In this document: positions 7,426 through 63,432 of the stretch, piece by piece
Layout: every line of letters starts with the position of its first letter
How positions within the stretch are numbered: the stretch's first letter is position 1
NCBI GenBank assembly: GCA_965220255.1
Contig: OZ244816.1
Coordinates: forward strand, 854,083 to 918,082
DNA from: Dehalococcoidia bacterium
GTDB lineage: Bacteria; Chloroflexota; Dehalococcoidia; Lucifugimonadales; VXLM01
Length of the DNA stretch: 64,000 nt
Reading direction: 5' to 3'
Notes under the pieces: model-generated
What the model was told of the DNA's origin: nothing
Database searches by the model: none
The model's input: only the letters and a program-made list of their open reading frames with translations
Position numbers and translations under genes: made by a program

Positions 7426-7510
7426 CCCTCACCCCCTGCCTACGCAGGGGCAGGCTCTAGCCCCCGTATGGGGGGTACGGGGCAAGCTCTCTCCCACGAC
7501 GGGAGAGGGG
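7426..7510. repeat. CCCTCACC…GGGAGAGGG repeat carrying two inserted mini-hairpin cassettes
   Basis: Relative to 55-90 it contains extra 7433-7458 (cccctgcctacgcaggggcaggctct) and 7462-7490 (ccccgtatggggggtacggggcaagctct). Confidence 0.75.
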
Positions 7511-7717
7511 ATATGACGGGGGCGTCTGCGCGTGGCGTCGGGGTTGACGGATGCGAACGGATGGTCTATGCTTGGGGGATGAACAGGCAATGTCGGAGTT
7601 GGCGTTGGCGCGGGGTGATCGTACAGGACGTGGGGAAGTGCTGTGCGATGTCGCGGCATGTGGCGGGGTTGTGGGTGTTGTGCCGGGTGGTGGGGGTGTG
7701 CGTGGGCGGGGGGTGAC

Positions 7718-7795
7718 TCACCACAGAGATCACGGAGATCACAGAGGGGGGAGGGGATTGGAGGGTTCACCGCAGAGGGCGCGGGGAGCGCAGAG
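7718..7795. repeat. Two CAGAG-type repeats, same orientation as 1630-1658
   Basis: tcaccacagagatcacggagatcacagag and tcaccgcagagggcgcggggagcgcagag. Confidence 0.7.
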
Positions 7796-7845
7796 GGGGG
7801 TTGGGTGTTAGGTGTTAAAGGAAAGGGGGATGGATTCCCGCTTTC

Positions 7846-7967
7846 GGAGACCATTGCATAACCTCCGTCATTCCCGCGAAGGCGGGAATCCAGAGATGTC
7901 TCCGAAGCTGGATGATGCCCTTTCAATGACATCCTCTCAGCGGGAGAACGGTTACGCAAAGGCCTCC
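7846..7967. mobile_element. 122-bp MITE with an internal REP, inserted in the loop of another REP (host 7831-7984)
   Basis: 18-bp TIRs ggagaccattgcataacc / ggttacgcaaaggcctcc (15/18); TTTC duplicated at 7842-7845 and 7968-7971; removal restores a canonical REP. Confidence 0.85.
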
Positions 7968-8056
7968 TTTCGCGGGAATGACGGGAGGGGGGGGAATGAC
8001 GGGTGGGGAATGTTACGAAATGTTACAGAATGTTACGTTTGGAGGGGGGGATGCCC

Positions 8057-8229
8057 TCACCATACCTCGTGATACAGGTCCTTCCAAGATGGATTGCCCT
8101 TCTCAATCAGTTCAATCTTCCAAGCGCGGTTCCACTTCTTAAGCATCTTCTCTCTTGCAATCGCGTTCTCCATGGACTCATGGGCTTCATACCAAACCAG
8201 TGTATGTACCCTATAGCGCTTCGTGAATG
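8057..8229 (-). pseudogene. C-terminal half of a small GIY-YIG nuclease
   Basis: Manual translation [56 protein letters not shown]; the N-terminal GIY/YIG half is missing. Confidence 0.85.
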
Positions 8230-11200
8230 AGGCCGTTCGAGTTGCTCATGCGTTGTCTCTCCTCAGCGGTCTTTCTTCGTCTCCGCAACGCCGCGATCAG
8301 CAAGACCAGCAACAAGAGCAGCCCCATCAGGCTGATGGGCACCAGCGCCCTGTCATCGATGCCCATCGACGCTATGAACTGGGGCAGCGCAGTCGGGAGG
8401 GCGATCGGCGTGGGCGACGAGCCCTTCGTCAGAGTCATGCCCGGCGCAGGGACAGGAGTAGGCGTAGGCGTTGGATTTACGCTCGCCACTGCGGGGACGC
8501 CTCCTGTGCCGGAACCGTCGTCCGATGATCCAGCCGGTACAGGGGTAGGAGTGGCTCTCGTGTCCTCATCATCGGTCGGCTGACCGGACGTGGGTGTGGG
8601 AGTCGCCGCCGTCTCTTCATCGTCCGGCTGGGCCGGTCCGGGGGTGGACAACGCGCTCAGGCGTACCGTTACGGTGAAGGTCTCCGTAACCTCGTACTCG
8701 CCATCGTCGGCCGTAATCGTCACCGTGTAGTCACCGACCTTCGCGTCGTCCTCGACCGCTCCGCCCGTCATGCTCTCGCCCGGATCGTAGGCCAGGCCGT
8801 TCGGCAGACCTTCCAGGGTCACAGTCGGCGATGGATCGTCGTCAAAGACGAGGATGCCGAAGGGGTGTACCGTCTGACCCTGGGAATAGCTCTTGTCACC
8901 CGGATTGATGATTATGGGCGGCGTGTTGATGTCTCCTCCGTGCCCGTAGCCGTCATCCTCCTGGGCCCCCACGTTCCCCTGGCGGTAACCCGGACCGGGT
9001 GTGGGCGTTGCGGATGTCGGCACAGGTGTCGGCACAGGTGTTGGTTCAGACCTCGGGCCGGGCGTCGGCTCAGGCGTCGGTACTGGCGTCGGCTCAGGAG
9101 TAGACCCAGACGTTGGCTCCGGTGTCGGCTCAGGCGTCGGCTCAGGTGTAGACCCAAGCGTAGGCTCCGGCGTGGGCACAGGCGTCGATTCGGGCGTCGA
9201 TGTGGGTGTGGGCACAGGCGTCGATGTGGGTGTGGGTGTCGGCGTGGATTCCGGCGTCGGCTCCGGTGTAGGCTGATGCGTGGATTCAGGCGTTGGCACC
9301 GATGTCGGCTCAGGTGTTGGTTCGGGTGTAGGCTCGGGTGTAGGCTCTGGCGTCGGAATGGGCGTCGGAATAGGCGTTGGGGTTGGCGTTGGGGTTGGCG
9401 TTGGTATGGGAGTCGGAGTGGGCGTGGGAGTCGGCGCAGTCTGCCCAGCGGTGGAGCCTTCCCCGTAGTCCGACCACGGGCTGACGCCCTCATCGTTCCG
9501 GGCTCTTACTATGACGTGGTACGTCGTGTCTGCGCGCAATCCCGTGATCGCGGCATGGGTCTGGAGGCCGGAGAGAGGGTTTGCCGTCCACTCGGTCTCG
9601 CCCACCTCTTTGTACGCCATGTCGTAGGATGTCACAGGCGGTCTGCCCGTCGTGTCCGGGGCCGTCCACGTCACGTCCAGCGCGGAAGCGGGGAAGTCTG
9701 ACGATCGGAGCACTGTCGGGGCGGCCGGTCTGGCCGGCGGCTCGTTCACGTCCGTCACGTTGACGGTGAGAGACAGGGTATCCGTGTGGCTGTGCCCGTC
9801 GTCCACCGTGACAGTGAGGGCGTCATAGGTCTGCCTAGCCTCGAAGTCCAGCGGGGCTTTGGTCCTCAACTGGCCGGTGTCACCGTCGATGGTGAACGCG
9901 CCGGCGTCGGCCCCGCTGAGAGTGTAGGTGAGCGGATCGTCTTCCGCATCGGTCGCCGTGATCGCCGCGCCGATTGCCGTGCCCGGCGGCGTGTTCTCGG
10001 CCACTGAGCGGGCGGCGTCATCGCCCTCGGTGAATTTCGGCAGCCCGTCGTCGTCCGCTATGGTCACCATCGCGGTCCGCCGGCCCATCGATACGCCATC
10101 GTCGGGCGATGAGACGGTCACCTTGATCAGCACAATTGAAAAGCTCTCCAGGTCCTCGTGTTCGTCGTCGTCGAGGATGTTTATCGTGATGGTTGCCGTC
10201 GTCTGTCCGGGCTGGAAGGTCACTGTGCCGGAACTGGGCTCGTGTTCGTGCGCCGGTGAATGGGACCTGCGGGAGGACCCCGACGCCCCGCCGGCCCCAT
10301 TTGCGCCCGATCCTCCCCCGGTTGACCACGACACCGTGACCGTAGCGTCCACAGGCGCGGAGAGACTGACCGGCAGGCCCACGCTGGATCCCTCACCCAC
10401 CGGGTTGCCCGGCGAGTGGATGGAGACCGAGGCGGCGGTGTTGCCAACTCCGGTATCCGACCAGGGGCTTTCACCCTCGTCGTTCCGCGCGAGCACCTGC
10501 ACCTCGTAGGCCGTGCTCCCCGTCAAGCCGGAGAGCGTGGTCTGGGTTCCCGTGCCCGAGAAGGCGTGGTCGGTCCACTCCGTCGCGCCCTGAGCCCGGT
10601 ACCGCACGTCGTAGCCGGTAATGGCGGGCTTCCCCGTCATGTCCGGCTCAGTCCATGCCACGTCCAGCGCGGACGAGGGGGAGCCTGACGATTGGCTCAC
10701 CGACGGCGCGTCGGGCTTGGGCGGCGCCTCGTCCACGTCGGTCACGGTAATCGTCACCGTAATCTCGGTACTGGCGGGCGGGGTTTCGGCATCAATAGCG
10801 TGGGGGTCGCGGTAGGCCGCTACGACGACGGTATAGATGTCCTGGGCCTCATGGTCCAAGGACGCGCCCTGGGCAACGGCTATCTGCCCGTTGCCCGCGT
10901 CCAGAGCGAAAATGGAGGATGGAGTCTTCAGTGCATAGACCAACGTTTGGCCATGGCTGTCTGTAGCCGTTACCATGTCGCCCACGGGGGTCCCGGCCGG
11001 TGAGTTTTCGGCCACCGCGCGGTGTGAGGCCTGCTTGGGGAATGCCACCCTGTGGCTTCGTGCACCGGTCTGGCCTTCACCCGGCGATGACCAAGGGCTG
11101 GCGATGTTGGAACTGTGCGCCCGGACCCGGACCTCGTAGGCCGTGTCCTTTGTCAGGCCGGTAAGCGTGGTGCTGGTCTGCGTGCCGGTGAAGGCGTGGT

Positions 11201-14200
11201 CAGTCCAGGCCGCGTCGCCCTTCTTCCGGTACTCTACGTCGTAGTCGGTTATGGAAAGGCCGCCGGTGGTGGCGGGCGCCGTCCATGCCGCGTCCAGCAT
11301 GGTCGTGGGATCGGTCGTCGACTGAGTCACTGCCGGCGCGTCGGGAGCGGACAGCGTCGGTGTGGGCGTCGATGGAGGCGTAGTCGACGGTGGAGGTGCT
11401 GGCGCATCCGTGACGTTGATCGTGAGATCGACGGCGGCGGCCTGACCCTGCACGGTCCACTTCACCTGTCCGGTGTAGGAATCCTTCGTCTGGTAGTTCA
11501 GATCCGCCCCCTGCTTCACCCTGATCTGGCCGGAGGCTTCGTCAATCACGAATGCCCCGTCCACCTCGCCCGTCAGCGTGTAGCTCGGCAGCTCAGTCCC
11601 ATGGGGCGCGCCTGTCACCGGACCGCCCACCGCCGTGCCCGCCGGGGAGTTCTCGACGATGCTCCGGGTCTCGCTCCTTTGCCCTGTGATCGTCACGGAG
11701 CGCGTGACGTATCCGCCGTACCCGTCGGAGGCCCCATAGGTGGCGGTTGTGGAAGCCGGGTTGACAACGGTTGTCGTCAACGTGTCTGAATCGCTGCCCG
11801 TTATCGCGGCCGTGAGCACGCCGGGGTGCTCCGAAGAGGCCGAGAAGGTCAGCGTGTCGCCGTCAGCGTCTTCGAACTCGTCGCTGATGTCATAGTCCGT
11901 GGCAACGCCGACGGCCACGGGGCCGGCAACGGTGAGTCCCTCACCTTTGGCGGTTGGCGGCGTGTTGGCCGTTCCTTCCCCTGCGTCCGACCAGGGTCCC
12001 GTGCTGTCGTCACTGTACACGACGCGCACCCGCGCCTCGTAGGTGGCCCCGCCTTCCAGGTTCAGGAGGGTTAGCGTGTGGCTGGTCGCGCCGACGGTTC
12101 CGCTGTAGTCCGTCCACTCGGCGGGATCCTCGCCCGCAGCGGCCTTCTTGCGGTACTGCGCCTCGTACCCGGTGATGGCTGCTTCGTTTTCCTCCGGGGC
12201 CGTCCACGTCACGTCCAGGGCCGGGGGCGACGGCTCGCTGAACGGGGTGCGGGTCAGCGTCGGCGCGTTGATTTCACCGGGCTCCACATCGGTCACGTTG
12301 ATGGTGAGATGTGCGGCGGCCGTTCTTCCCCAAGACACGGTCCACGTGACCGCTCCCACCCAGGACGTCGTGCCGCTCTCGTAATCCAGCGTCGCTCCCT
12401 CTTTCACCCTCACCTGGCCCGTGGCCGAGTCGATGACGAAGCTATCCGTGAAGTTTTCCGTTACGCCGTGCAGCGTGTGGGTCAGGGTCTCCCCGTTGCA
12501 GGAATTCCCCATAACCGGGTACCCCACCGCCGTGCCGGCGGGCGAGTTCTCGGGGATTTCGCGGACCTGCCTGGAGTTACCGTGATAGAAGGTCCATGTT
12601 TCATGGGATTCCCCGCCGTACTCGTCATACGACTTGGCAGAGACTCTTGTGCCGTTCCCGACGGGGTTGTTTATGTATACAAACAGCCTGGTGCCCTGCA
12701 TCCAAGTTCGTACTGCGCAGGGATCGATTGAATGGGCCGAGTAGGTGAGCGTATCGCCATCCGGGTCCTCAAAGTGCCCGGGGATTTCAGTGTAGATTGT
12801 GCTGTGGCCCCACTCAAGGGTAACACTGGGCCAGGGCGGCGTGTGCCTATCACCTTGCAGCGGTCCTCCCGGCGGCCGGTTGGCCCTGCCTTTCCCGGTT
12901 TTCGACCAGGGGCCTGCGCCCTCGGCGCCGCTCATCGCCCGCACCTGTGCTTCGTAGGTGGCGCCCGCCTCCAACCCAGCCAGATTCAGACTCCTCGCGT
13001 CCGCGCCCAGGGTCCCACTGTAGTCCGTCCAGCCGGTCTCGCCCTGCTTGCGGTACCGCGCCTCGTATCCCGTGATGGTGGTGCCGTAGGCAGCAGCAGC
13101 CTTCCAGGCGACATCCAGCGCCGGGGGCGTCGGATCGCTGAACTTCGTGCGGGTGAATGTGGGCGCGTCGGGCTTCCCGGGCACGGCGTTCGTCACGTTG
13201 ATGGTGACGCCGATCTTGCCCTTGCGCTCACCGCTGGTATAACTCACCTCCCCGGTGTAGGAGCTCTTGGTCTCGTGGTCCAGTTTCGCGTTCGGCCCCA
13301 CCCTGATCTGGCCGCTGGCGGAGTCGATCACGAATGCCCCGGAGGTCGACGCCTCGCCGCCCAGCTTGTGCGTCCCGCCGCTGTTGGACGCCCACGTCAC
13401 CGGGGCGCCCACCGCCGTGCCCGCGGGATAGTTCTCGCCGACGCTCCGGGTCACGTTCAGCGGCAGAACATTTATGGCGATGTCGGCGTAGGCTTCCAGG
13501 CCCTGCACCGTCCAGTTCACCCGCCCGGAGTAGTAGCTCTTGGTCGCGAAGTGGATCGTCGCGCCTTGCTTCACGCTGACCTGGCCCGTGGAGGAGTTGA
13601 CTGTGAAAGCGCTCGCCGCCTCGCCCGTCAAGGAGTAGCTCAGGGCCACGTTGTTATAGGGGGTTCCGGTAATCGGGTCGCCCACATTCGTGCCGGCGGC
13701 GCTTCCCTCGACTATGCCCCCGGTCCACGGACGCGCGATGCCGCTGACGGCGATGTCCTGGGAGACGTATCCGCCGTATCCGTCATGCGCGCCGTAGGTG
13801 ACCGTCGACGTGGCCGGGTTGAGGATATATATCCTCAACTGGTCGGCGTCGTCGCCTTCTATGCCTGCCGTGAGCGCTCCGGGATGCGCGGATGAGGCCG
13901 TGTACGTCAGCGTGTCGCCGTCGTCGTCCGAGAAGTCGCCGCTGATCGTCTGAACGGAGTCGTCTCCGCCCCACGTGAGATTGTAAGCGGGGTTGAGGGT
14001 GCCCAAGGCCGTGAGCTTGGGGGGGCGGTTGGCCTGCCCTGAGCTGGTGTCCGACCAGGGGCCGGTTTCCTCAATGCTGGTGAGTGCGCGCACCTGGACC
14101 TCATATGTCACACCGGCCTCAAGGTCCGGCAATCTGAGGCTGGTCGCAGTCGCGGCCAGGGTTCCGGTGTAAGCCGTCCAGTCGGCGGGATCCTCGCCCT

Positions 14201-17200
14201 CGGCGGCCTGCTTGCGGTACTGCGCCTCGTAGCCGGTGATGGTCAGTCCGTTGGCGTCTGCCGCCGTCCACGTCGCGTCGAGGGCCGGAGCCGTCCGCTC
14301 AGTGAACTTCGTGCGCGTGACCGTCGGTGTGCCGGGCTTCCCAGGATTAACGTCCGTCACGTTGATGCTGACGTAAGCGATGGCGGTCTTGCCCTGCACT
14401 TCCCACTCTACCTGCCCCGAGTAGTACTTCTTGGTCTCGTAGTCCAGGCTGTCGCTTTCCTTGACACTGATCTGGCCGGTGGACGAGTCGATCTCGAAGA
14501 CGCCGGAAGTGGCCGCCACGCCTGTCAGCGTGTAGCTCAGTGTCTCCGTCCCATGCGGCGTGCCTGTCACCGGATCGCCCACCGCCGTGCCGGCCGGAGA
14601 GTTTTCGGGAATGTCGAGATTGAGGTTCGCGCTGGGGTTGATAGTGAGCCAATCTTCAACATAGCCGCCGAACCCGTCACGCGCCCCAAAGGTAATCGTT
14701 GCCTTGACCGGGTTGAGGAAGTGGATACTGAGCTTGTTATCCTCGATGGTCGGTCTGATAATCCCTACATCCCCCGTTGTTCTAGCCTCAGCCACGAAGG
14801 TGAGCGTGTCACCGTCGGGGTCGATAAAGTAGCTATTGATCGGGTGAACATCGTCCGTCCCGCCCCACAGAGCATCGACTTGCTGGCCTTCGGTGGGGCC
14901 GGTTAGGGTACGAGTGGGCGCGCGGTTGGCCTGCCCGGACCCGGTGTCCGACCAGGGGCCGTCGACCGTACCCCTGACCGCTCGCACCTGTACCTCGTAG
15001 TTGGCGCCCGCTTCCACGCCCGTCAGGTTGAGGCTGGTGGTCGTCGCCGACAGGGCACCCGTGTAGGCCGTCCAGGCCGCGACGCCGGACTTACGGTACT
15101 GCGCCTTGTAGCCGGTGATGGCCTCCCCCGCGTTGGTCGGGGCCGTCCAAGTCACGTCGAGGGCCGGGTCCGCCTGCACAGTGGACTTTGTGCGCGTGAC
15201 CACCGGCGTGCCCGGCTTCTCAATGTTGTCTTCAATGGTGATGTCGGCGCCGGTGACGGTCGCCTCGCTGGCCTTTCCCGATATAGTGATGGTCTTGTTT
15301 TCGTCCACAGCGGCCGGTATGCCGGTAAAGGTCAGCTTCATGGTCGCGGTGGTAAGACCCGAACCGATCTGCAAGACGGGCAGGGTCGATGGCGACACGG
15401 TATAGTGGGTTCCTTGGGTGGCCGTGCCAGTCAGCGAAAAGTTAATGTTGCTTCGACCGACGTCGGTATTGCGATTCGCCGTAACGGTAATCCCGAAGGA
15501 AAGGGCGTTCTCGGGGAATGAACTCGGTTCCACGCTCAGGGTAATTTCAGTGGCGGTGGATAGGGCCGTCAGCGGGTCGGCCTCCACGGTGATGGTGAAG
15601 TCGAATGATGCCTCGTCGCCGTCCTCATCGGTAGCGGTATAGGTCATCTCGAACTCACCCGCCTCGGCAGGCGTGCCGGAAATGACGCGAGTCGCCGCGT
15701 CGAAGGACAGCCCTTCCGGCAGGTCCGGCGTCAGGCTGTAGGTCAGCTCGCCGTCGCCGCCATCGGCCTCGGGCAGCGCGGGCAACGCATCTTCAGCAAT
15801 CTCCTCGCCTTCCGTGAGCGAGAAGCCGCTTACCGCAAGGGAGAAGAACGGTGCCAGACCGGTAACTCGCTTGACCTCAAACCGCGTTGTGGCGGGTGCG
15901 CTGCGGCCTACGCTGTTGTACGCCTCCACCCGCACCAGCCATTCGCCATAGTCTGCCACGGTGATGTTGGCATTGGAGGACTGAACCTCCACACCCGTGT
16001 TCAGCTTGTTGCCCGGGGCGGCGACTCGCCAGCGCACCAGGTAATGGCTCGCTCCGTCGACGTCATCCCAATCCAGCGACACGCCCAGCGAGCCGTTTGT
16101 GGTGTCAGCCTGCAAGCCCGTGGGCTTCGCCGGTGCGCTGACTATCGGCTCAGGCGTGGGAGTGGCCGTCGGTTCGGGCGTCGGCCCAGACGCAGTGTCC
16201 GACTCGACCTCAAACCGCGCAGTGGCGGGCGATCCGCAGCCCGCGCTGTTGCAGGCTTCCACCCGCACCAACCATTCGCCATAGTCGGCGACGGTGATGT
16301 TCGCGTTGGAGGACTGCGCCTCCACACCCGCGTTCAGCTTGTTGCCCGGGGCGGCCACTCGCCAGCGGACCAGGTAGTAGCTCGCTCCGGCGACGTCATC
16401 CCAGTCAACCGACACGTCCAGCGAGCCGGTTGTGGTGTCGGCCTGCAAGCCCGTGGGCTTCGCCGGTACGCCGGCTATCGGCTCAGGCGTGGGAGTGGCC
16501 GTCGGTTCGGGCGCAGTGGCCGACTCGACCTCAAACCGCGATGTGACAGGCGATCCACAGCCGGCGCTGTTGCAGGCCTGCACCCGCGCCAACCATTCGC
16601 CATAGTCGTCGACGGTGATGTTGGCGTTGGAGGACTGCGCCTCCACACCCGCGTTCAGCTTGTTGCCCGGCCCGGCCACTCGCCAGCGGACCAGGTAATA
16701 GCTCGCTCCGGCGACGTCATCCCAGTCCACTGACACGTCCAGCGAGCCGGTTGTGGTGTCGGCCTGCAAGCCCGTGGGCTTTGCCGGCGCGCTGACTATC
16801 GGCGCAGGCGTGGTTCCGGGAGTAGGTTCGGGAGTAGGATCCGGTGTAGGCTCAGGCGTAGGTTCGGGGGTAGGCTCAGGTGTGGGTTCGGGAGTAGGTT
16901 CAGGGGTAGGCTCAGGAGTCGGCTCAGGCGTAGATTCCGGTGTCGGTTCGGACCACGTAACGGTGATCGACGCTGAGGCCGATTTCCCGGAGCCGTAAGT
17001 CACCGTGACCCGAAACGCTTGAGATTCGGCCCTGTTAGTGAGGTATCGGAAGGTGGAACCCGACCCAAAAGAGTTCCAGCTTCCGCCCAGGTTCAACTCC
17101 CAATTGTACGAAGGGCTCGAGCCGGAGGGAGCGTTCGAGACGTTCGCGCTCAGCGTCACCGCCTGTCCGACCAAAGGACTGGCTGGGCTCGCCGTGATGG

Positions 17201-17351
17201 AGACCTGCAACGGGGGAGGCGCCTCCTGCGCGGAAGCCGATGGCGAGGAGAACAGGACGGCAGCCAGTGCGGCCAGGACAAGTATCAGCGTGAGTGACGC
17301 CCCGCGCTTCAGTCCGGTCTTCGAACTATAGTTGCCTGCCGTCGTATTCAC
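8211..17351 (-). CDS. Giant membrane-anchored surface protein/adhesin (FN3, cadherin-like, putative Ig, Calx-beta, Pro/Thr/Glu linkers), 3046 aa
   Basis: Signal peptide; FN3 motifs (LDVTWTAP…YEVQVRA…GPWS); cadherin motifs ([14 protein letters not shown]); Calx-beta ([10 protein letters not shown]…DDDEHE); C-terminal TM helix + RRRRK. Confidence 0.9.
9001..9435 (-). repeat. Coding (PT)n/(PTPE)n low-complexity repeat
   Basis: 6/12-bp periodicity with synonymous variation; a second PTPE tract lies at ~16805-16950. Confidence 0.85.
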
Positions 17352-17678: not shown

Positions 17679-17693
17679 TCATCATTCGTTGGT

Positions 17694-25846: not shown

Positions 25847-25940
25847 CGTTCGTGGTGAGTCTGTCGAACCATGAACCGCCCTTCGACGGGGCATCACCCT
25901 CACCCCCGTATCGGAGTACAAGGCAGACTCAGGCCGAACG
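25847..25940. repeat. TTCGACAG(G/A)CTCAG-type inverted repeat with a 37-bp insert in its right arm
   Basis: Left arm cgttcgtggtgagtctgtcgaa; right arm ttcgac[25888-25924]agactcaggccgaacg. Confidence 0.7.
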
Positions 25941-33039: not shown

Positions 33040-33150
33040 TGACTGTTCAGACTTCGTAGGAGCGCTCAACGCACGCAGCCACCGTCATACCCGCTTTCGC
33101 GGGTATCCATAGGGGTGGGGGATGTTCACACCATAAATTTTGAACACTCA
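33040..33150. mobile_element. ~110-bp MITE-like element (ACTGTTCAGA ends) with an internal REP
   Basis: tgactgttcagactt…ttttgaacactca; near-identical to 55617-55726. Confidence 0.75.
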
Positions 33151-33202
33151 CAATGTGGCAAAAGTCATTGTCTTTTCCCGAAAACCGTTTAGCATAGTTT
33201 CT

Positions 33203-41272: not shown

Positions 41273-41298
41273 CCCTTCGACAGGCTCAGGGAAAACGG
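41273..41298. repeat. Solitary CCCTTCGACAGGCTCAGG repeat arm
   Basis: Uninterrupted version of the split arm at 25879-25940. Confidence 0.65.
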
Positions 41299-42270: not shown

Positions 42271-42345
42271 GCGGGCGTAACTCAGTGGCAGAGTGTCTGC
42301 TTCCCAAGCAGAAAGTCGGGGGTTCGAATCCCCTCGCCCGCTCCA
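42271..42345 (+). tRNA. tRNA-Gly(CCC)
   Basis: Acceptor stem gcgggcg/cgcccgc; anticodon arm tctgc-ttCCCaa-gcaga; GGTTCGAATC; encoded CCA. Confidence 0.97.
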
Positions 42346-43074: not shown

Positions 43075-43146
43075 TAACTGTTCAGACTTCATGAGACCGC
43101 TCTACACACACAGCCCACCGTCATTCCTGCGAAGGCAGGAATCCAG
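43075..43146. repeat. Left arm + REP of the ACTGTTCAGA MITE-like family
   Basis: taactgttcagacttc…ccgtcattcctgcgaaggcaggaatcca; no matching right end. Confidence 0.75.
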
Positions 43147-43192
43147 AAAGCCCGGTCAGTCGAGAATACGGCCTCATCACACCCAATTGGTC

Positions 43193-45129: not shown

Positions 45130-45205
45130 CCGTACCTCCGTTTCGGACAAAGGGTAACTTGTTTCGAGGGGTCAGGTAAAGTACGCGAGAAGAGACGGAG
45201 AATGC

Positions 45206-45340
45206 AACTGTTCAGACTTCACGCGAGCGCTCTACACACAGCCCACCGTCATTCCGGCGAAGGAACGTCACCCCGTACCACGATACGGGGCCGGAATCCA
45301 AAAGGGCGGGGAGGTTTCTCTCACCAAGTCTGAAACAGTT
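45206..45340. mobile_element. ACTGTTCAGA MITE-like element whose REP carries a 27-bp insert
   Basis: TIRs aactgttcagactt / aagtctgaaacagtt; insert at 45264-45290. Confidence 0.8.
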
Positions 45341-50486: not shown

Positions 50487-50635
50487 ACTGTTCAGACTCC
50501 GTGAGAGCGCTTGACACACACAGCCCACCGTCATTCCCGCGAAAGCGGGAATCCAGAGTCGGGTACACATATACTCTCTATGAGGAATAGATTCCCGCTT
50601 TCGCGGGAATGACGGGAAATGTCAACACAACCTAG
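50487..50635. repeat. Composite element: ACTGTTCAGA left arm + inverted REP doublet + GAAATGTCAACACAACCTAG tail
   Basis: REP arms 50528-50553 and 50590-50615 with a 36-bp spacer. Confidence 0.85.
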
Positions 50636-50644: not shown

Positions 50645-51869
50645 CAGGGCAATCGCATCTTATTGGGCAAGGACCTTGAGTAGATAGTCATTGTCCCAGG
50701 CGGCGTCTTTTCGTTTGCCGGCGATGCTGCGCTTGGTGGACTTTTCGGCCTTGAGCAGATTCAGGGCCATGCGACGTAGCACAGAGAAGTTCTCTGCCCC
50801 ATTCCCGTTACGCACCCGGCATCCATCCTCATTGAACGTCACGTCCAGTGACCAGTGCAATTGGTTCTCTATGCTCCAGTGGCTGCGCACCGCGTTGAGC
50901 AAGACGCTCGCATCGTTTGGCAAGCTCGATATGTAGTAGCGCGACTCCACCCTCGTCTTGCCACCGACGAGTCGCTCGCCTTCCACCATCACCAACGTAG
51001 TCAACCCCGGCCACTGCCCGCCATCATCTACGTATCTGATGTGGTCGAGGTCGGACACGGCCCAGCATCGACGAGTCTCGACTCGTCCGTGACCCGCATT
51101 TGTCGTCTCGTAGTAGTCGTGGTCGAGACTGTCGAAGCCGGACTTGCGGGCAAGATCGAAGATGTCATGCATATCCTCGTGCAGGCGCCCCTGGTTCTTC
51201 TTGACCGCCAGCACGTAGTCGGCTTTCTCCTGCAGGATCTTCGATGCGACCTCCTTCTGGCAGCCCATGGCGTCGATAGTCACGATGCACCCTTCGACCT
51301 GGAGCATTTCGAGCAGTCGGGGTATTGCCGTGATCTCATTGGAGCGCCCGTCCACTCTGGTCTGTCCGAGTGCTACGCCGCTCGCAGAGGCCCAAGCGCT
51401 GACCATGTGGATCGCATCCTTCCCTATATACCGGTCGTGTGAACGACGCACTCTCTTGCCGTCTATGGCTAAGACGTCACCTTGCAGAACCTCTCGCACA
51501 GCCAACACCCACTCGGTGAAGCAGCGCTCGAACTGCTGAGCATCCAGCCTGGCAAAGACCCTGCCAAAGGTGTCGTGGGATGGAATACCGTTAGGCAGGT
51601 CCAGCATCCTGCGCAGCCAGTCCGCCTTGCGCCTGCCGAACGCCTCCACGTCCACCCAACTGTCCGCACCTGCTATGACACCGCAGAGCGCAATGGTGAG
51701 GATGTCCATTAGAGGGTGGCGTTTGGTGCGGTCAATACGCGGATCGACCAAGCTGCCAAAGTGTTCGGTCAGGGACGCTGTGTCTCTACTCGCCATGGGG
51801 CACTCTCCACATGAGATTGACCCCAATTCTATAACTTGTCTAAGACTTCATTTAGATGCGATTGCCCTG
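50645..51869 (-). mobile_element. Complete ISAs1-family insertion sequence (1225 bp)
   Basis: Perfect 16-bp TIRs CAGGGCAATCGCATCT; 10-bp TSD GCCGATTTCG at 50635-50644 and 51870-51879. Confidence 0.96.
50660..51796 (-). CDS. ISAs1 DDE transposase
   Basis: DPR, GIPSHDTF, AIDGK, SNEITAIP, DAMGCQ, HWSIENQLHW.LDV.F.ED. Confidence 0.96.
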   Translation of the reverse strand: MASRDTASLTEHFGSLVDPRIDRTKRHPLMDILTIALCGVIAGADSWVDVEAFGRRKADWLRRMLDLPNGIPSHDTFGRVFARLDAQQFERCFTEWVLAVREVLQGDVLAIDGKRVRRSHDRYIGKDAIHMVSAWASASGVALGQTRVDGRSNEITAIPRLLEMLQVEGCIVTIDAMGCQKEVASKILQEKADYVLAVKKNQGRLHEDMHDIFDLARKSGFDSLDHDYYETTNAGHGRVETRRCWAVSDLDHIRYVDDGGQWPGLTTLVMVEGERLVGGKTRVESRYYISSLPNDASVLLNAVRSHWSIENQLHWSLDVTFNEDGCRVRNGNGAENFSVLRRMALNLLKAEKSTKRSIAGKRKDAAWDNDYLLKVLAQ

Positions 51870-53592: not shown

Positions 53593-53734
53593 TTCCCGAT
53601 TGCCGGTATGCCGATCCGGGCGTCTCGCAACACATCGAACCCAAAGAGGGTCCCTTGCATCCAATTGTATGGGAACCTGCCTCTAAAGCGAAAGCGGGGC
53701 CTCTCCCGAACTGCGGGGTAATACGAGGACGTTC

Positions 53735-54025: not shown

Positions 54026-54034
54026 TCGGAGACG

Positions 54035-54508: not shown

Positions 54509-54530
54509 CCTGTACCGGTCCCCTGTATTT

Positions 54531-55575: not shown

Positions 55576-55616
55576 GGTGAAAATATACCACAGCGGCAAT
55601 TGCGTAGGAAGTATTG

Positions 55617-55726
55617 TAACTGTTCAGACTTCGTGAGGGCGCTCAACGCACACAGCCACCGTCATACCCGCAAAAGCGGGTATCCATAGGGGTGGGGGAT
55701 GTTCACCCATGAACTCTGAACAATTA
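55617..55726. mobile_element. 110-bp MITE-like element (ACTGTTCAGA ends) with an internal REP
   Basis: taactgttcagactt / aactctgaacaatta (13/15 inverted match). Confidence 0.8.
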
Positions 55727-55782
55727 CCACCACTGGTACGTAAGATCGAAGACACACCTGCCAACTCTGATAGAATTGCCGC

Positions 55783-56145: not shown

Positions 56146-56148
56146 GAG

Positions 56149-57354: not shown

Positions 57355-57429
57355 ACGTGCCGGTTCGCCTACTGTGAACCAGTGTATAGGATGCCGTCGC
57401 CGTGGGCTAGGAATAGGGGGCGGAGAACA

Positions 57430-57490
57430 CCCTCATCCCCGTATCGAGTACGGGGCAGGCTCTAGCCCTATCCCGCGAACGGGAGAGGGG
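57430..57490. repeat. CCCTCA…GGGAGAGGG repeat with one inserted mini-hairpin cassette (57437-57463)
   Basis: ccctcat[ccccgtatcgagtacggggcaggctct]agccctatcccgcgaacgggagagggg. Confidence 0.8.
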
Positions 57491-57555
57491 ATGTCCGCGC
57501 GTTGGCATGGCTGTTATGTCGGAAAGGAACCGGCGCTCGTCAGGGCGAAATGGGA

Positions 57556-59403
57556 CTACCTCAATACCCTGCCATCCCCCTCGCGACGGGTCACTCGCTC
57601 GCGGTCGAGCTGTTCAAGCAGGGCGAGAGCGTACTTGCGGCTGGTGCCGAACATGTCGCGCACGTCGCCGACTGTGATGGGGCCAGCCGTCCTGATGTGC
57701 TGTGCAACCGCGTCCGCCATCCTCTCGTAAGCCGACGCGGCGAACACGACCGAATCACCCGCGCGCACCACACGCCCCTCATCCACCAGCAATGAAAGAA
57801 TCTCCGTGTCCGGCACCGGTTCAGTTGGAGGAGAGTAGGGCTGCGCCTCGAGCATTGCGAGGTAGTCCTGCACCGTCCGCTCCTGGCTTGGCGTCAGCTT
57901 CCGCGTGTGACCGGCAAGATAGACCACCGGCCCATCCTCAACAACCGTCCCTTTCTCCTGCAGGACACGGAGCGCATCGGGAAAGTCAGCGGGTGTGGAC
58001 CTTGTGCGACTGCGGAGCTCCTCCTTGGGCGCGCCCTTTCTCAGCGGGTAGGACTCGTGGTAGGCGGAAAGGAACTCCAGCGCCCTCTTCTCCAGCGCCT
58101 GCCAACCACTCTTGGAATAGACCGATTTTCCCGAACGGAGCAGCACGATGTCCCCATTTCTCGCCATTCCCTCAAGCTCCGAAGTCACGGTCTCGGCTTC
58201 CATGTTGGCGCGGCTGGGAAGATCGTCCACATCTGCCGGCTCTGTGCGTTCGATTGTGTTGAGGAGGATGTCCTGCGCCGTGCCCTCCTCCATCATGGCA
58301 AGTCGTTCGAGGGTCGGTTGGTGATTGCGGCGATGCCGCTGTGCGTGCGTGTCCACGACGCTGCCGCCGCCCAGCGTGGCGCGGTTGGACCTGACCACGA
58401 AGAAATCGTCCTTGACTATCGCGATGGGCGTCTCGAACTTCAGCTGCGCCCACACTGACTCCCCCGGCTCCGCGCGCTGCCGTTCCAGAAGCCGCAGCCG
58501 TGCGATGGCCTCGCTGCTTCCCGTATGGACCGTCAGCCGCATGTTGTGACGGAGCGGACGGGGGACATCCTCGATGACCCTCAGGTGGACGTCCACAGCG
58601 TCCGTTGGGTTCAGCCAGCCCGGGACGGTCAGCACGTCTCCGCGTTGGAGGTCGTCCTGGGACAGGCCCACGATGTTGGCTGCCACCCGCGAGCCCGGCG
58701 GCGCCGCTTCCAGCTTCCTCTTGTGGCTCTGCAGGCCGCGAATCCTCGATTCGAGCCCCTTAGGGAGCACCTCGACCTCCTGGCCGACGCTCAGGATACC
58801 GTCGACCAGCGTGCCGGTTACTACGGTGCCGAAGCCGGACATCGTGAACGCGCGGTCGAGCGCGAGGCGCGGGCGTCCGAGGTCCTTGCGTGAGTGAGTA
58901 TCCTGGAGAAGAGCCTCGACCGTCTCCCTCAGATCCGGCAGACCCTCTCCCGTGGTGGCCGAAACCGGAATGACCGGTACGCCAGCGAGCGTCGTGCCTT
59001 CAAGGACCTCTTGGACTTCCGCCGTCACGAGCTCAAGCCACTCGTCGTCCACGAGGTCGCGCTTGGTGACGGCCACGAGGCCGCGACTGACGTTCAACAG
59101 ATCGAGGATGGCGAGGTGCTCTCGCGTCTGCGGCATCACCGACTCGTCGGCGGCGACCACGAGCAGCGCCAGGTCGATGCCGCCCACTCCCGCGAGCATG
59201 TTGTTGACGAACCGCTCGTGCCCCGGCACGTCCACGATGCTGACCTCGCTGCCGTCGGAGAGAGGCATCCACGCGAAGCCAAGGTCGATGGTCAGGCCGC
59301 GGTCCTTCTCCTCTTGGAGACGGTCGGGGTCTATGCCGGTGAGGGCATGTACGAGCGTCGACTTGCCGTGGTCGACGTGTCCGGCCGTACCGATTACGTG
59401 CAA
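57556..59403 (-). CDS. selB: Selenocysteine-specific elongation factor
   Basis: GTAGHVDHGKS, RGLTIDLGF, DVPGHE, C-terminal GTSRKYALALLE.LD. Confidence 0.96.
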   Translation of the reverse strand: MHVIGTAGHVDHGKSTLVHALTGIDPDRLQEEKDRGLTIDLGFAWMPLSDGSEVSIVDVPGHERFVNNMLAGVGGIDLALLVVAADESVMPQTREHLAILDLLNVSRGLVAVTKRDLVDDEWLELVTAEVQEVLEGTTLAGVPVIPVSATTGEGLPDLRETVEALLQDTHSRKDLGRPRLALDRAFTMSGFGTVVTGTLVDGILSVGQEVEVLPKGLESRIRGLQSHKRKLEAAPPGSRVAANIVGLSQDDLQRGDVLTVPGWLNPTDAVDVHLRVIEDVPRPLRHNMRLTVHTGSSEAIARLRLLERQRAEPGESVWAQLKFETPIAIVKDDFFVVRSNRATLGGGSVVDTHAQRHRRNHQPTLERLAMMEEGTAQDILLNTIERTEPADVDDLPSRANMEAETVTSELEGMARNGDIVLLRSGKSVYSKSGWQALEKRALEFLSAYHESYPLRKGAPKEELRSRTRSTPADFPDALRVLQEKGTVVEDGPVVYLAGHTRKLTPSQERTVQDYLAMLEAQPYSPPTEPVPDTEILSLLVDEGRVVRAGDSVVFAASAYERMADAVAQHIRTAGPITVGDVRDMFGTSRKYALALLEQLDRERVTRREGDGRVLR

Positions 59404-59506
59404 CGCTCACGCCCCCTCTCTGTATCTCTCCCCCGCCAGCGGGGGAAAGATTATGGAATCCCTACGAGAGCATAGCAAACCCGGATGCCGCGCGGTACGC
59501 GGCACG

Positions 59507-60703
59507 TCAGTCGAAGAAGCGGACGAATACCTCGTTGCTCAGGAACCTGCCCTTGTCGGTCAGGCGTATGCTCCCTTTGGCCACCTCTACGAGTCCGGTG
59601 GGTTGAAGCTCGCCCAACTCCTCTCGATAGACCTCCAACGGGGATTCTCCAAAGCGGGTCTCGAATTCCGTGATGGATACTCCGGTATCAAGTCGCAGTC
59701 CGAGCATCATCGTCTCGGCCATTTCGAGTGATCCATCAATGTACTCGACGGTGTCTACCACGGGTACCTGCCTGATGGCGGCTTGGGCCTCGTCACGGGA
59801 CCCGCTTATAGGGATCGGAGAGCCGGAATGTTCTTGCAGCCTCCTGACGTACTCGCGCGGGGGCTTGAGGTTCGAGAATCGGTGGTTGGCGAGAGAGGAG
59901 TGCGCCCCAGGCCCCACGCCCAAGTACGGCTCATTGCGCCAATAGACGATGTTGTGCAGGCCCAGCTTGCCGTCCGCCGCCCAGTTGGATATCTCGTAGT
60001 GACGGTAGCCAAAGTCTCCAAGCTGCTGCTCGGCCGCCGCGTACATGTCCGCGGCGAGGTCGGGATCGGGCATGGGCAGCGTCCCCTGTGAAACGGAATG
60101 CTCCATCGGCGTGCCGCCTTCGAGCGTCAAAGCGTAGAGGGACACGTGCGGCGGTTTGAGGTCAGCCGTTCTCGCAAGCGTCTCCCGCCAGTGATCAATG
60201 GTCTGGTGAGGCAGGCCGTACATCAGGTCGATGCTGACGTTGTCGAACCCGGCATCTAGCGCCATGCGATACGCCTCGACGGCGTCCGCCGCAGTGTGGC
60301 GTCGACCCAGCAGCGTGAGCAGGCCATCGTCGAAACTCTGAACTCCGATGCTGAGCCTGTTGATACCGGATTCGAGGAAATTACTCAGCTTGTCAGGGGT
60401 AAAGTCTCCCGGATTGGCCTCTAGGGTGACCTCCGCGTCCTCCGTGAAGGGAAACGACTCGGAGATAGTCGCCATCAGCGCCGAGATGTCACCGGTCGGC
60501 AAGTAGGAGGGCGTGCCGCCGCCGAAGAAGACGGTGCGAACGGGGGGATTGCCGAGCATACCGCCCCACAGCTCGATCTCAGTCCTCAGCGCGGACACGT
60601 AGTCGGGTATGAGCGACTCGATCTTGGCGTACGTGTTGAAGTCGCAGTACGGGCACTTCGTATCGCAGAAGGGAATGTGGACGTAGAGGGCTATGGGCTG
60701 CAT
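59507..60703 (-). CDS. hemW: Radical SAM heme chaperone HemW
   Basis: LYVHIPFCDTKCPYCDFN, GGGTPS, YEISN, HNIVYW; alternative start at 60742. Confidence 0.92.
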   Translation of the reverse strand: MQPIALYVHIPFCDTKCPYCDFNTYAKIESLIPDYVSALRTEIELWGGMLGNPPVRTVFFGGGTPSYLPTGDISALMATISESFPFTEDAEVTLEANPGDFTPDKLSNFLESGINRLSIGVQSFDDGLLTLLGRRHTAADAVEAYRMALDAGFDNVSIDLMYGLPHQTIDHWRETLARTADLKPPHVSLYALTLEGGTPMEHSVSQGTLPMPDPDLAADMYAAAEQQLGDFGYRHYEISNWAADGKLGLHNIVYWRNEPYLGVGPGAHSSLANHRFSNLKPPREYVRRLQEHSGSPIPISGSRDEAQAAIRQVPVVDTVEYIDGSLEMAETMMLGLRLDTGVSITEFETRFGESPLEVYREELGELQPTGLVEVAKGSIRLTDKGRFLSNEVFVRFFD

Positions 60704-60772
60704 GAGGTCGCGGTCATTTGGTGTTCCGTTTCGCAAGTTCATCGAATAAGTGCGACAACAATCGACGCCCAT

Positions 60773-60880
60773 CCGTCATTCCCGCGAAAGCGGGAATCTA
60801 TTCCCCGTAGAAAGTATATGTGTCCCCAACTCTGGATTCCCGCTTTCGCGGGAATGACGGGAAATGTCAACACAGCCTAG
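60773..60880. repeat. Inverted REP doublet + GAAATGTCAACACAGCCTAG tail
   Basis: Perfect 26-bp arms 60773-60798 and 60835-60860 with a 36-bp spacer. Confidence 0.9.
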
Positions 60881-61275: not shown

Positions 61276-61395
61276 GGTCAAACTCCTTTCGGCCCATATC
61301 TGCGTGAACATCTCGATATCAAGTTCGGGTCATTATAGGGTCAACGAAAACGCAGTAAAACCCGACGGAAAACGGCCTGCCGTCTCAATCGTCCA

Positions 61396-62487
61396 TCACA
61401 GATTAAACAGCACGTGCATAATCTCGCCGTCCTGCACGACGTAGTCCTTCCCCTCCTGGCGGAGGATGCCGCGTTTCCGTGCCTCGGCGAAGCCGCCGCA
61501 CTCGACCAAGTCATCGAACGGCACGACCTCCGCGCGGATGAAGCCCTGCTCGAAGTCGGTGTGTATCTTCCCTGCCGCCCTCGATGCCGTCGTGCCCTCC
61601 CGGATCTCCCACGCGCGCACCTCGTCGTCTCCGATGGTCAGGAAGGTGATCAGTCCAGCGACGTCGTACGAGAGCCGGATGATCCTGTTCATCCCCGACT
61701 CTCCCGCGCCAACCGCCTCCCTGAACTCGGCTTCGTCCGCCGCGTCCATCTGCGCGAGGTCCATCTCCAGTTTGCCGCATAGGGCAGCGGCTCGGACGGA
61801 CGGTCCTTGAACCGTCTCGTCAAGCCGTTCTTCGAGCTCGACTGCCTCATCGAGATCGCTCTCGTCGATGTTGAGCAGGACGATGAGAGGCTTCGCCGTA
61901 AGGAACTGGAACCCGCGAAGGCGCTGGGCCTCCTCGGTCGTGAACTGCTGGTCGCGGATGGGCGTCTCTGCTTCGAGATGCCCCTTGATGCTCCCTAGCA
62001 GATCGCGCTCCTTCTGTATGGCGTCGCGCTCGGATGCCTTCGCGCCCTTGGAGCTGTCGTCCAGTCGCTGAAGACGGCGCTCAAGGATTTCGAGGTCCGA
62101 GAAGAGAAGTTCCAGCATCATGTTTTCGACATCTCGGAAGGGATCGACCGAGCCGTCAACGTGGAGCACGGCCTCGTCCTTGAAGGCCCGTGCAACGATG
62201 AGCAGCGCGTCGACCCGCTGCAGGTCGTTCAGGTACTGGCCCGATATCCCTCGTATCCTGCCGGAAGGGCTTGCCGGAGGTGGTATGTCGACGTAGCTCA
62301 CCGTCGCAGGCACCCGTTTGCGGGGTTCGTACAGGTCAGCGAGGCGGTCCAGGCGTGCGTCCGGCACGGCAGCGACGCCGACATTCGGCGCTCCACCATA
62401 CGACGCCACATCCGCCCGCCCGCCCGTCAAAGCGTTGAACACGGTGGTCTTCCCGCTCCCGGGCAGACCTATGATGCCGATTTCCAT
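61396..62487 (-). CDS. ychF: Redox-regulated ATPase YchF
   Basis: GIIGLPGSGKTT, LTAKP, AAGKIHTDFEQGFIRAEV, EGKDYVVQDG. Confidence 0.95.
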   Translation of the reverse strand: MEIGIIGLPGSGKTTVFNALTGGRADVASYGGAPNVGVAAVPDARLDRLADLYEPRKRVPATVSYVDIPPPASPSGRIRGISGQYLNDLQRVDALLIVARAFKDEAVLHVDGSVDPFRDVENMMLELLFSDLEILERRLQRLDDSSKGAKASERDAIQKERDLLGSIKGHLEAETPIRDQQFTTEEAQRLRGFQFLTAKPLIVLLNIDESDLDEAVELEERLDETVQGPSVRAAALCGKLEMDLAQMDAADEAEFREAVGAGESGMNRIIRLSYDVAGLITFLTIGDDEVRAWEIREGTTASRAAGKIHTDFEQGFIRAEVVPFDDLVECGGFAEARKRGILRQEGKDYVVQDGEIMHVLFNL

Positions 62488-62538
62488 GGGTGTGTTTCTC
62501 TGTGGAGAATGGCAGGAGGCGCCGGTGACTCGGAAGAA

Positions 62539-62916
62539 CTATCTCTGGGAATCGCCCTTCGGAGCGTCCTCGTCCTCGACGTGGCGATACTGGCCTTCGA
62601 TGACCTTCTCCCGTGGTTGGCCGGCGCCGGCTTCCGTGGGAGAGTCGGCGGGACGTCCGGTGAGATATTCATTCAGGACGCTGCGGGGGGTCATCAGCAG
62701 GAATGAGGCTAGAGCAACGAGGATGACGATGAGGTCGTCGGTATGCCCCAGGATCGGGAAGAGGTCGGGCAGAAGGTCGATGGGCAGGACAAGGTAGATG
62801 ACGGCGACCGGTATGATCAGCTTCAGGCGAAGGGGCACTCGCCGGTCGAGCATCAGCCTGAAGACCAGACCGGGAATCCTGGTAAGCATCAACACGCGTA
62901 GAATCGGCATTGCCAT
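62539..62916 (-). CDS. YkvA/DUF1232 membrane protein
   Basis: YLVLPIDLLPDLFPILGHTDD. Confidence 0.85.
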   Translation of the reverse strand: MAMPILRVLMLTRIPGLVFRLMLDRRVPLRLKLIIPVAVIYLVLPIDLLPDLFPILGHTDDLIVILVALASFLLMTPRSVLNEYLTGRPADSPTEAGAGQPREKVIEGQYRHVEDEDAPKGDSQR

Positions 62917-63260
62917 GAGTCCGCGCTCCTTACCGTTACGATACCATAACACTGGCCGTGGAGGCCTCATGCCGTGTCATAGACTCCCACCCAATTTGAC
63001 CACCAAGAACGCTTGGCCTACGATGACCATGTCGCACGAGCGGACGCCGGAAAACGCGATCGGACCCACGAATCCGTATGAGACAATCTGCGAACTACTG
63101 CAAGAGATTCGGCCCCAGAGGAATTCTTCTCAAACCGTCTCATCCGCCCGTCGTCTGTCGGATGCGTTTGCCCGAAACAGCTTCAACACGGCCCTCCGGC
63201 ACGAGCGAAAAGGAGCGAGACATATTGAGAACAAGAGAAACTAGCGGGGAAATAACGGCG

Positions 63261-63350
63261 TCTCAGACCATCTCATTTTCTCAAATGATCTCATCGCCTC
63301 AGACCATCCCACTTTCTCAAACGCTCTCATCGTCTCAAACCGTCTCACGC
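63261..63350. repeat. Five tandem 18-bp units (TCTCAnnnnnTCTCAnnn)
   Basis: Units start at 63261, 63279, 63297, 63315, 63333; a lone copy lies at 63128-63145. Confidence 0.8.
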
Positions 63351-63377
63351 CTGAAGGAGGCTTCGCGCCAACACTCT

Positions 63378-63432
63378 CCGTCATTCCCGCGAAAGAAATT
63401 CGGCCCGTACCGGGATCCAAGACGGGAATCCA
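63378..63432 (+). repeat. REP with a 27-bp insert (63396-63422)
   Basis: ccgtcattcccgcgaaag[aaattcggcccgtaccgggatccaaga]cgggaatcca. Confidence 0.8.

Follow-up and report, generated by a model that had tools for sequence, protein, structure and literature searches.

A mobile 23-27-nucleotide hairpin cassette nested in other repeats, from a Dehalococcoidia genome to three bacterial phyla

Can a piece of DNA shorter than 30 bases be a mobile element, and if so, what moves it? The question is raised by a 64,000-nucleotide stretch of a Dehalococcoidia genome (contig OZ244816.1; the whole stretch is called the window here), in which a small hairpin cassette, CCCCGTA-N5-7-TACGGGG or a close variant, lies inside three different families of repeats. 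An earlier note on this DNA took the cassette for a very small, site-preferring insertion unit or for a repair scar left when hairpins are processed. We find that it is a real, mobile, cross-phylum micro-element, and that its spread is probably two-tiered: a defined single-stranded piece would invade a new site only rarely, and spread within a host family would be frequent, through homology-driven copying from filled to empty repeats or through amplification of the filled repeat. The cassette is among the smallest mobile pieces of DNA known. How repeats of fewer than 30 bases move has been an open question since the small dispersed repeats (SDRs) of Nostoc, and the cassette brings to it a fixed 24-mer in three phyla, a simple target rule, pairs of filled and empty sites, cultured carriers and a candidate enzyme with a published assay.

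A tailed hairpin with defined ends

All six insert sites previously listed are present in the window, as are the empty host forms placed at 55-90 and 41273, and the ungapped match of 17 in 27 positions between the inserts at 45264-45290 and 63396-63422 is exact. The loci of these two inserts stand, and their coordinates are one of two equally valid parses; we use the one shifted by a base, 45263-45289 and 63395-63421 (Table 1). The exact motif occurs three times in the window (7462, 45271 and 57437) and never in 100 order-2 Markov resamples of it. What did not survive is the notion of a single unit of ~27 bp: delimited by comparison with empty host repeats, the units measure 23, 24 and 26 nt, besides 27-nt copies on the minus strand, and fall into two tail subtypes.

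Each cassette is a hairpin of 6-7 bp followed by a tail of 7 or 9 nt. The short-tail subtype (23-26 nt) joins the hairpin to GCAGGCT, and the long-tail subtype (26-27 nt) joins it to GTGACGTTC. Genome-wide counts, which the earlier note had proposed, were taken from relatives of the window, covering 1.68 of the 4.42 Mb of genome G026, 0.48 of the 4.23 Mb of G011 and short segments of further genomes. The resulting 2.16 Mb of G026 and G011 yielded a catalogue of 150 copies (short tail, 118; long tail, 32), and we judged the host class of each from its flanks. A tail is present on 121 of 122 exact hairpins, and the cassette is therefore never free-standing.

The fold is conserved through compensatory change, although hairpin correction by template switching could yield the same: compensated stem changes occur in 7/150 copies, which represent three haplotypes, and three unrelated hairpins use one tail and one target. 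The cassette also nests in itself (L034, L049, L070 and L227) and occurs in tandem (L105 and L507). Further small hairpin-plus-tail inserts with other cores, those of repetitive extragenic palindromic (REP) sequences, are found in the same hosts (L049, L060, L070, L075, L086 and L192), which suggests a wider family with a CAGGCT-like tail.

Host sites and target rule

Insertion into other repeats, as first described from the window, accounts for 132 of the 150 copies, which lie in REP-like hosts or their remnants, but the cassette is not confined to these. Thirteen copies sit in transposase genes, which belong to four families (DDE_3, DDE_Tnp_1_4, DDE_5 and DDE_Tnp_1), three in an island resembling an integrative and conjugative element (ICE) with a PRTRC-like ThiF and a DUF2958 gene, and two, in frame, in one BNR-repeat gene common to both genomes. 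Insertion-sequence (IS) and ICE-like DNA thus holds 16 copies, and plain unique intergenic DNA of G026 (~296 kb, ~10,000 CCT sites) holds none, a comparison that rests on crude gene calls and rough denominators. Recognizable hosts of the CGTC, CCCTCACC and TTCGAC types are filled in about one fifth to one third of cases; the TTCGAC repeat is entered on both strands and the CCCTCACC repeat at three positions. In contrast, none of the 150 copies lies in a GTAG REP, although 28 such REPs are present and offer the target. Spacer lengths of the hosts form discrete classes: 100 CGTC hosts have 0 nt, and a cluster lies at 24-28 nt. Insertions in genes are 24 nt long in 16 of 18 cases, compared with 60 of 100 in repeats (p=0.018).

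The base to the left of the insert is C in 147/150 copies, and the site reads C/CT (the slash marks the insertion point) in 127/150. The same rule is seen elsewhere: at unique metagenome sites for which the search pattern left the left-hand base free, it is C in 103 of 106, and a set from the Xanthomonadaceae family reads C/CT at 26 of 30 sites. At site 1 of the CCCTCACC host, 21 of the 71 copies that read C/CT are filled, compared with only 1 of the 35 that read C/CC (p=0.0008). The parse of the 24-nt unit is settled by sites of the form C/TT and C/AT, which imply that no target is duplicated; alignments of filled and empty sites contain neither terminal inverted repeats nor target-site duplications. 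Ends are exact where flanking homology is absent, including a C/AT site in IS630, and also where two copies of the GTGACGTTC type lie outside REPs in G046. Thus, insertion points are not random and copies are not mostly free-standing, and together with the cleanly empty homologous sites described below, these counts bear out the description of a very small, site-preferring insertion unit. That it is not a classical MITE (miniature inverted-repeat transposable element) is likewise upheld, since both inverted repeats and duplication are lacking.

The canonical 24-mer has no stop codon in any of its six frames. Insertions add eight residues in frame to proteins, shift the frame of transposases and mark deletion junctions, so that the cassette edits the mobile part of these genomes. 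Three adjoining decayed IS copies in G026 (L347; 2,008,400-2,011,900) carry at least five cassettes, whereas younger copies of the same IS carry none. Cassettes are also found at deletion, chimera and inversion junctions (L072; G026 2008655, 2100123, 1837227 and 2311744), as recombination between two copies predicts.

Mobility and two-tier spread

Aligning filled with empty sites, a check suggested when the cassette was first noticed, yields twelve homologous pairs in which one genome is filled and the other cleanly empty, three of them involving the window. They include L106/L110, L124/L122 and L111/L114, a site in G026 (1095754) compared with G011, and eight pairs from a further comparison, three of which may involve paralogous repeats. 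Among these eight are the window sites 57438, whose G017 counterpart is empty with one extra C, and 41273. The gain of 37 nt at window 25888, relative to an empty orthologue in G045, is a further case. Most of the 169 queries compared had no alignable counterpart, and one locus (G011 130333) was left out as a coding look-alike. Contigs of four sequencing runs gave no filled/empty polymorphism among the matches listed. Contigs of one run (X2) match 57440-60794 and 61916-64000 with zero differing letters, which argues that the window copies there are not an artefact of one assembly step, although X2 is possibly the window's own sample and not independent of it.

Several patterns tie cassette variants to their hosts. 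Forms of 25 nt fill 22 of 24 CGTC loops compared with 13 of 62 CCCTCACC sites (p=1.6e-9), long-tail copies in a second sample lie in CGTC loop context in 48 of 51 cases, and in G496, 62 of 68 hosts of one family are filled with one and the same junction. These patterns indicate that most copies descend from earlier copies in the same host type, and we infer that they did so through conversion or amplification of the filled repeat. In the CGTC family, however, covarying host subtypes share the cassette, and 30 of 33 filled hosts have intact stems, which implies more than one founder repeat.

Distribution among genomes

The genomes closest to the window are the Dehalococcoidia G017 and G045 (YchF 93%, DNA 86-95%), followed by G020, G011 and G026. 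These relatives hold 31-196 hairpin copies each, the maximum being in G045, compared with 0-3 for a reversed control. The exact 24-mer occurs at no fewer than 104 genome loci (at least 104); among the matches listed, 85 belong to Chloroflexota/Dehalococcoidia, 13 to Desulfobacterota or 'Deltaproteobacteria' and 6 to Gammaproteobacteria, the last including three cultured Pseudoxanthomonas. The tailed pattern is patchy, being present in 24 of 251 genomes of G011's class and 15 of 201 of G043's family, and its count reaches 324 copies in G002 and 41 in the cultured Pseudoxanthomonas sacheonensis DSM 19373. The GTGACGTTC subtype is narrower: 8 of 36 genomes have it, namely those of the window's clade and G046. 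The GTGACGTT-tailed pattern, also present in 8 of 36 genomes, was found in 0 metagenome stretches. A plasmid search returned no full cassette match, and viral contigs returned seven matches, two of which resemble chance or decayed ones. Cassettes within apparent coding DNA of IMG/VR contigs (L453-L455 and L457) may mark a vehicle between hosts.

What moves the cassette

The main host repeats flank small nuclease genes, CGTC repeats surrounding a gene for a 95-aa GIY-YIG protein and CCCTCACC repeats surrounding DUF559 genes. The GIY-YIG gene (L110) is present in the closest relatives of the window, encodes a single domain and has SRMs on both sides; by size, domain and flanks its product is a putative Ssn-type nuclease, although it has no NCBIfam or PDB match, and phages gave no match to it. 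The CGTC repeats of the window match the NTS/SRM consensus of the Ssn/NTS system (Chenal 2025, PMC11893778). According to the available text of that paper, cutting by SsnA is restricted to the CGTC-first single strand and yields a 20-nt piece from the oligonucleotide NTS75, and the cut made by Ssn homologues differs by a base. By arithmetic from the 20-nt product and the oligonucleotide table there, the SsnA cut lies 4 nt ahead of CGTC and 8 nt ahead of the stem. For the 27-nt cassette, the start is 3 nt ahead of CGTC and likewise 8 nt ahead of the stem, and the end is at the foot of the hairpin; on the plus strand, the copy at 45263-45289 reads GAA-CGTC-A-hairpin, that is, a truncated SRM. 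The SRM tag and stem are present in 30/32 of the 27-nt copies and 0/118 of the 24-nt copies, whereas the full published degenerate SRM pattern fits 1/32 and 0/118, the 3' end of the SRM being missing in 31/32. Across both subtypes the stem fits the SRM core in 131/150 copies. Our best lead is that the 27-nt subtype may be a truncated Ssn-nuclease motif, of the shape expected of a single-stranded piece that was cut and trimmed; this is a coincidence within one base rather than a demonstration. Of 35 cassette-positive genomes, 32 have an Ssn-like gene, compared with only 5 of 15 negative ones; for DUF559 the counts are 29 of 35 and 7 of 15, and one or the other gene is found in all 35 positive genomes (35/35).

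The reading that we tentatively prefer is of a non-autonomous, SDR-like micro-element of 23-27 nt that is parasitic on other repeats and released by a nuclease. The defined piece would be the tail-first strand, freed from single-stranded DNA in trans by a REP-associated, structure-specific nuclease, which is the least certain step. For the 27-nt subtype this would be an Ssn-type GIY-YIG enzyme, and for the 24-nt subtype possibly a DUF559 enzyme or an Ssn variant. The other end of the piece would be set by the hairpin foot, and host repair would patch the piece into a nick or gap at AG/G. Granted a mobile element with two-tier spread, such a nuclease step is plausible but falls just short of probable. 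A bolder version, which we consider rather unlikely, makes the cassette a hyperparasite of REP-nuclease systems: the freed 24-27-nt tail-plus-hairpin oligonucleotide would itself replicate, be patched at AG/G into DNA that passes through a single-stranded state (REPs, IS and ICEs), and be carried between phyla by ICEs. If true, it would name a mover for SDR-sized elements, mean that Ssn nucleases create mobile DNA, and amount to oligonucleotide transposition without a transposase. No DNA-rejoining activity is known for GIY-YIG enzymes.

That last point is one of several that weigh against the preferred reading. The co-occurrence of nucleases and cassettes is confounded by target supply, as the genes travel with the host repeats, and by kinship, for which the counts are uncorrected. 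None of the nuclease genes has the cassette itself at its borders; the flanks are ordinary, sometimes filled, REPs, and action of the nuclease on the cassette remains that of a candidate, proposed from sequence. The 24-nt subtype is the commoner and the sole cross-phylum form, lacks the CGTC tag (0/118) and has the shorter tail, so that the SsnA coincidence leaves it uncovered. The 5' end of the 27-nt unit can also be parsed as 2 nt before CGTC. Seven homologous pairs, including window 45263, are filled in both genomes, which means that many copies are old. Not every junction is clean: L034 and L070 gained 23 nt. In hosts of the GGATCAAGTCC type (empty site C/G), host bases are intact in only 1 of 31 filled copies and 1-3 bases are replaced in the others, and no matching empty form of this host is found in G496 or G497. 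The insert at window 25888 brings donor flank with it. These last junctions are where the idea of a repair scar retains some force; it suits this minority (window 25888 and the GGATCAAGTCC-type hosts) and fails for most junctions. Counted by copies, wobble pairs favour the tail-first strand 23 to 8, a lead that shrinks to 9 to 6 when haplotypes are counted. Strand bias is also a property of the hosts, with non-REP copies divided 9 to 9.

We suspected a replication-strand bias of the cassette itself from its clustering in G026, where copies are densest at 1.76-2.27 Mb and polarity switches near 1.9 Mb. This was rejected because empty hosts are equally biased and non-REP copies are unbiased. The orientation of empty REPs at 1.02-2.70 Mb of G026 tracks the local intergenic GC skew rather than gene direction (77/88; 121/163), and the CGTC-first strand, which is the strand cut by SsnA, is mostly the C-rich strand in that genome. 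An advantage of filled repeats, by which they would resist the nuclease and drive like homing introns, is weakened for the CGTC loop, since SsnA tolerates loop removal and extensions in the assays given in the available part of PMC11893778; it may still apply to stem insertions.

The rival that survives best, although we judge it unlikely, dispenses with a dedicated enzyme and explains the cassette by polymerase template switching and short-patch gene conversion only. A fork stalled at a hairpin would jump to a filled site via the C and CT microhomologies that flank each filled copy, which would make the C/CT rule self-perpetuating. The insert at window 25888 fits well, as it brings 13 nt of donor flank (of the CCCTCACC repeat, followed by a decayed 25-nt cassette at 25905-25929) and returns at a microhomology. 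So do the bases replaced at tail junctions, the variants tied to host families, the family-wide sweep in G496, the cassettes at deletion and chimera junctions, and the fact that targets are nearly all repeated or mobile DNA. However, template switching does not predict exact ends at unrelated sites without right-hand microhomology, such as the C/AT site in IS630, nor identical ends in three phyla. Stems are intact across covarying subtypes in the 30/33 filled CGTC hosts, the cassette variant is unlinked to the host arm (p=0.18), and the GTAG REPs, 28 of which offer C/CT, hold 0/150.

Movement of a single-stranded unit by an HUH tyrosine transposase, whether a REP-associated tyrosine transposase (RAYT, or TnpA-REP) or an IS200-like enzyme, is improbable. 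In the available text of PMC8266576, TnpA-REP cleaves at C/T, and C/CT can be read as CC/T; no target is duplicated, and the 3' half of the cassette resembles the start of local GTAG REPs (the first dozen bases, with one base extra; L464 and L319), which may reflect origin or chance. A profile search finds RAYT-like genes in 10 of 18 genomes, including G017, G020 and G026. Those genes, however, are flanked by their own GTAG REPs and never by the cassette, and the GTAG REPs are not invaded. None was found in 8 of 18 carriers, including G045 with its 196 copies, several of these genomes being incomplete; the gene is broken in G011 and interrupted by a stop in G017. Targets of the form C/TT and C/AT exclude the CC/T parse. 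PF04986 was not found in 5/5 genomes, but a control was equally silent, and PF01797 is present in 18/47 carriers. PF01797 gave no Y1 transposase in close relatives (0/5), but the profile found divergent RAYTs in G017 and G026 and a fragment in G011. That some TnpA-REP enzymes cut CCT was not borne out, with 0 occurrences in the text available. Separately, in divergent RAYT genes that the Pfam search did not pick up, their GTAG REPs lie in frame within the gene (L464:1195-1995 on the minus strand, L459, L460 and L462).

A small RNA followed by reverse transcription, a route reportedly proposed for the Nostoc SDRs, appears quite improbable here. A conserved fold with free sequence, fixed ends that suit a processed RNA and the lean of wobble pairs to one strand are all compatible with it. 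Against this, when cassette-rich genomes were searched for the reverse transcriptase family PF00078, only 9 of 22 gave a match, and G026, G017 and G045 gave none, and the orientation of host and cassette tracks intergenic GC skew rather than gene direction. Least of all, in our estimation highly improbable, is an origin as a remnant or passenger of IS110-family bridge recombinases: these likewise enter REPs at a CT core (G026/G011 and G008/G009 have copies inserted at CT in or beside REPs) and occur in 16 of 22 carriers, but their ends share nothing with the cassette, other sites are used, CT is kept at both junctions whereas the left junction of the cassette is CC, none was found in six of 22 carriers (including the single-chromosome assemblies G006 and G010), and cassette targets share only 2-3 bases. 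The comparison of ends largely refutes IS110 as the parent, and we rejected it. RAYT, IS110 and reverse transcriptase thus all fit poorly as movers. IS110 elements are themselves found at a CT core within or just before two REP families (L399 and L402-L421).

DUF559 genes bracketed by CCCTCACC-type repeats occur in both Chloroflexota and Gammaproteobacteria (L121-L126, L468, L472 and L478), and our literature search found no paper on this pairing.

Relation to known small repeats

The cassette is of a kind already known, that of SDR-sized mobile repeats whose mover is unexplained, and is a new variant of it that spans phyla. The SDRs of Nostoc and its relatives (SDR1-8), reportedly described by Elhai et al. 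in 2008, are said to have a conserved fold and to nest in other repeats and in themselves, and the cassette shares both of these features. No transposase is known for them. As for what citing papers state in their available text, SDR5 is a 21-nt repeat whose point of insertion in HIP1 is between bases three and four (PMC4390886, PMC13756078, PMC5861425, PMC2884548), SDRs are reported in Nostocaceae only, and the function of SDR5 was still called unknown in 2026 (PMC13756078). Both sets of elements are ~20-27 nt long, dispersed, possibly mobile and precisely inserted into a short target, a likeness that is drawn from descriptions, chiefly in the accessible parts of citing papers, not from sequence. 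Unlike the SDRs, the cassette is found in Chloroflexota, Desulfobacterota and Gammaproteobacteria (cyanobacteria lay outside the search), has a target of 2-3 bases, and lives in nuclease-associated REPs and IS genes.

One of its host families is exactly the CGTC-tagged REP of Di Nocera 2013 (PMC3733652), which is the NTS/SRM of Ssn nucleases (PMC11893778), as far as the available text of both papers goes. The stem of the cassette resembles the SRM core, and the 27-nt subtype is also tagged; in contrast to an SRM, the cassette lacks the 3' end and never stands free, being placed within SRMs and other repeats. No such inserts are described in the portions of PMC3733652 and PMC11893778 that were covered. 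With the REP/REPIN-RAYT systems, as described in the accessible text of PMC8266576, PMC3116915 and PMC6006769, the cassette shares a small hairpin, the absence of target duplication and CT at the junction, but it has no GTAG tag, is a single hairpin and not a doublet, and flanks no RAYT gene. Like MITEs it is non-autonomous; unlike them it has no terminal inverted repeats or duplication, and it is at most one quarter of the MITE length of 70-300 bp given in the available text of PMC3733652. The in-frame insertion in genes recalls the Rickettsia palindromic elements (RPE). Identification as a MITE, a REP, a REPIN or an IS110 remnant was rejected in each case for want of the defining features. 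We found no description of the cassette in the literature, in a search that left out subscription papers and the original SDR paper.

Features of the window

The inserts, their hosts and the empty repeats of the window are collected in Table 1. Of 89 open reading frames of at least 150 aa in the window, 42 were scanned, and none of these encodes a Y1 transposase, a nuclease or IS110.

Table 1. Cassettes and host repeats in the window (positions count from the first letter of the window; nt, nucleotides)
Feature	Position	Strand	Comparison
CCCTCACC-type REP host with two inserts (site 1 in leader, site 2 in stem)	7426..7509	+	empty counterpart 55-90
23-nt cassette, alternative hairpin CCCTGC-CTAC-GCAGGG with GCAGGCT tail, C/CT, site 1	7434..7456	+	variant shared with G045 at same host site
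26-nt cassette, CCCGTA hairpin with GCAAGCT tail, C/CT, site 2	7463..7488	+	
~37 nt gained in TTCGAC-type repeat; ends shiftable by a few bases	25892..25929	+	alignment with empty G045 orthologue
Empty TTCGAC-type repeat	41273..41296	+	G017 orthologue has 24-nt minus-strand cassette between 41289 and 41290
CGTC-tagged REP host (NTS/SRM type), loop filled	45247..45299	+	
27-nt cassette, hairpin with GTGACGTTC tail, C/CT beside host loop	45263..45289	-	G017 filled too
CCCTCACC-type REP host, site 1 filled	57430..57489	+	
Canonical 24-nt cassette (hairpin with GCAGGCT)	57438..57461	+	empty in G017 orthologue; exact 24-mer in three phyla
Strongly decayed 27-nt cassette, GTGACGTTC-tail type, in CGTC-tagged REP (63379-63431)	63395..63421	-	17/27 identical to 45264 copy
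Empty CCCTCACC-type REP; site 1 is C/CC, disfavoured target	55..90	+	
Empty CGTC-tagged REP	7866..7893	+	fits published NTS consensus
Further empty CGTC-tagged REPs	94-121 (-), 43119, 50529, 50587 (-), 55660, 60774, 60832 (-)		

The doubly filled REP at 7426 is flanked by genes for very large surface proteins (1827-7286 and 8211-17351) with cadherin, fibronectin III and leucine-rich repeats and internal duplications. A tRNA gene at 42271-42342 is the sole Rfam match in the window. Several CGTC REPs form the tail of a longer repeat that begins with ACTGTTCAGAC (33040-33165, 43075-43150, 45205-45300, 50490-50560 and 55620-55710). The copy of this repeat near 33040 (~123 nt) is missing from the G017 orthologue, which suggests that host REPs are themselves carried in larger mobile units. 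Two inverted REP dimers (50529-50614 and 60774-60859) have a related 38-nt spacer, and the first adjoins an ISAs1 transposase gene (50660-51826), with copies that are 94-96% identical in G011 and G026.

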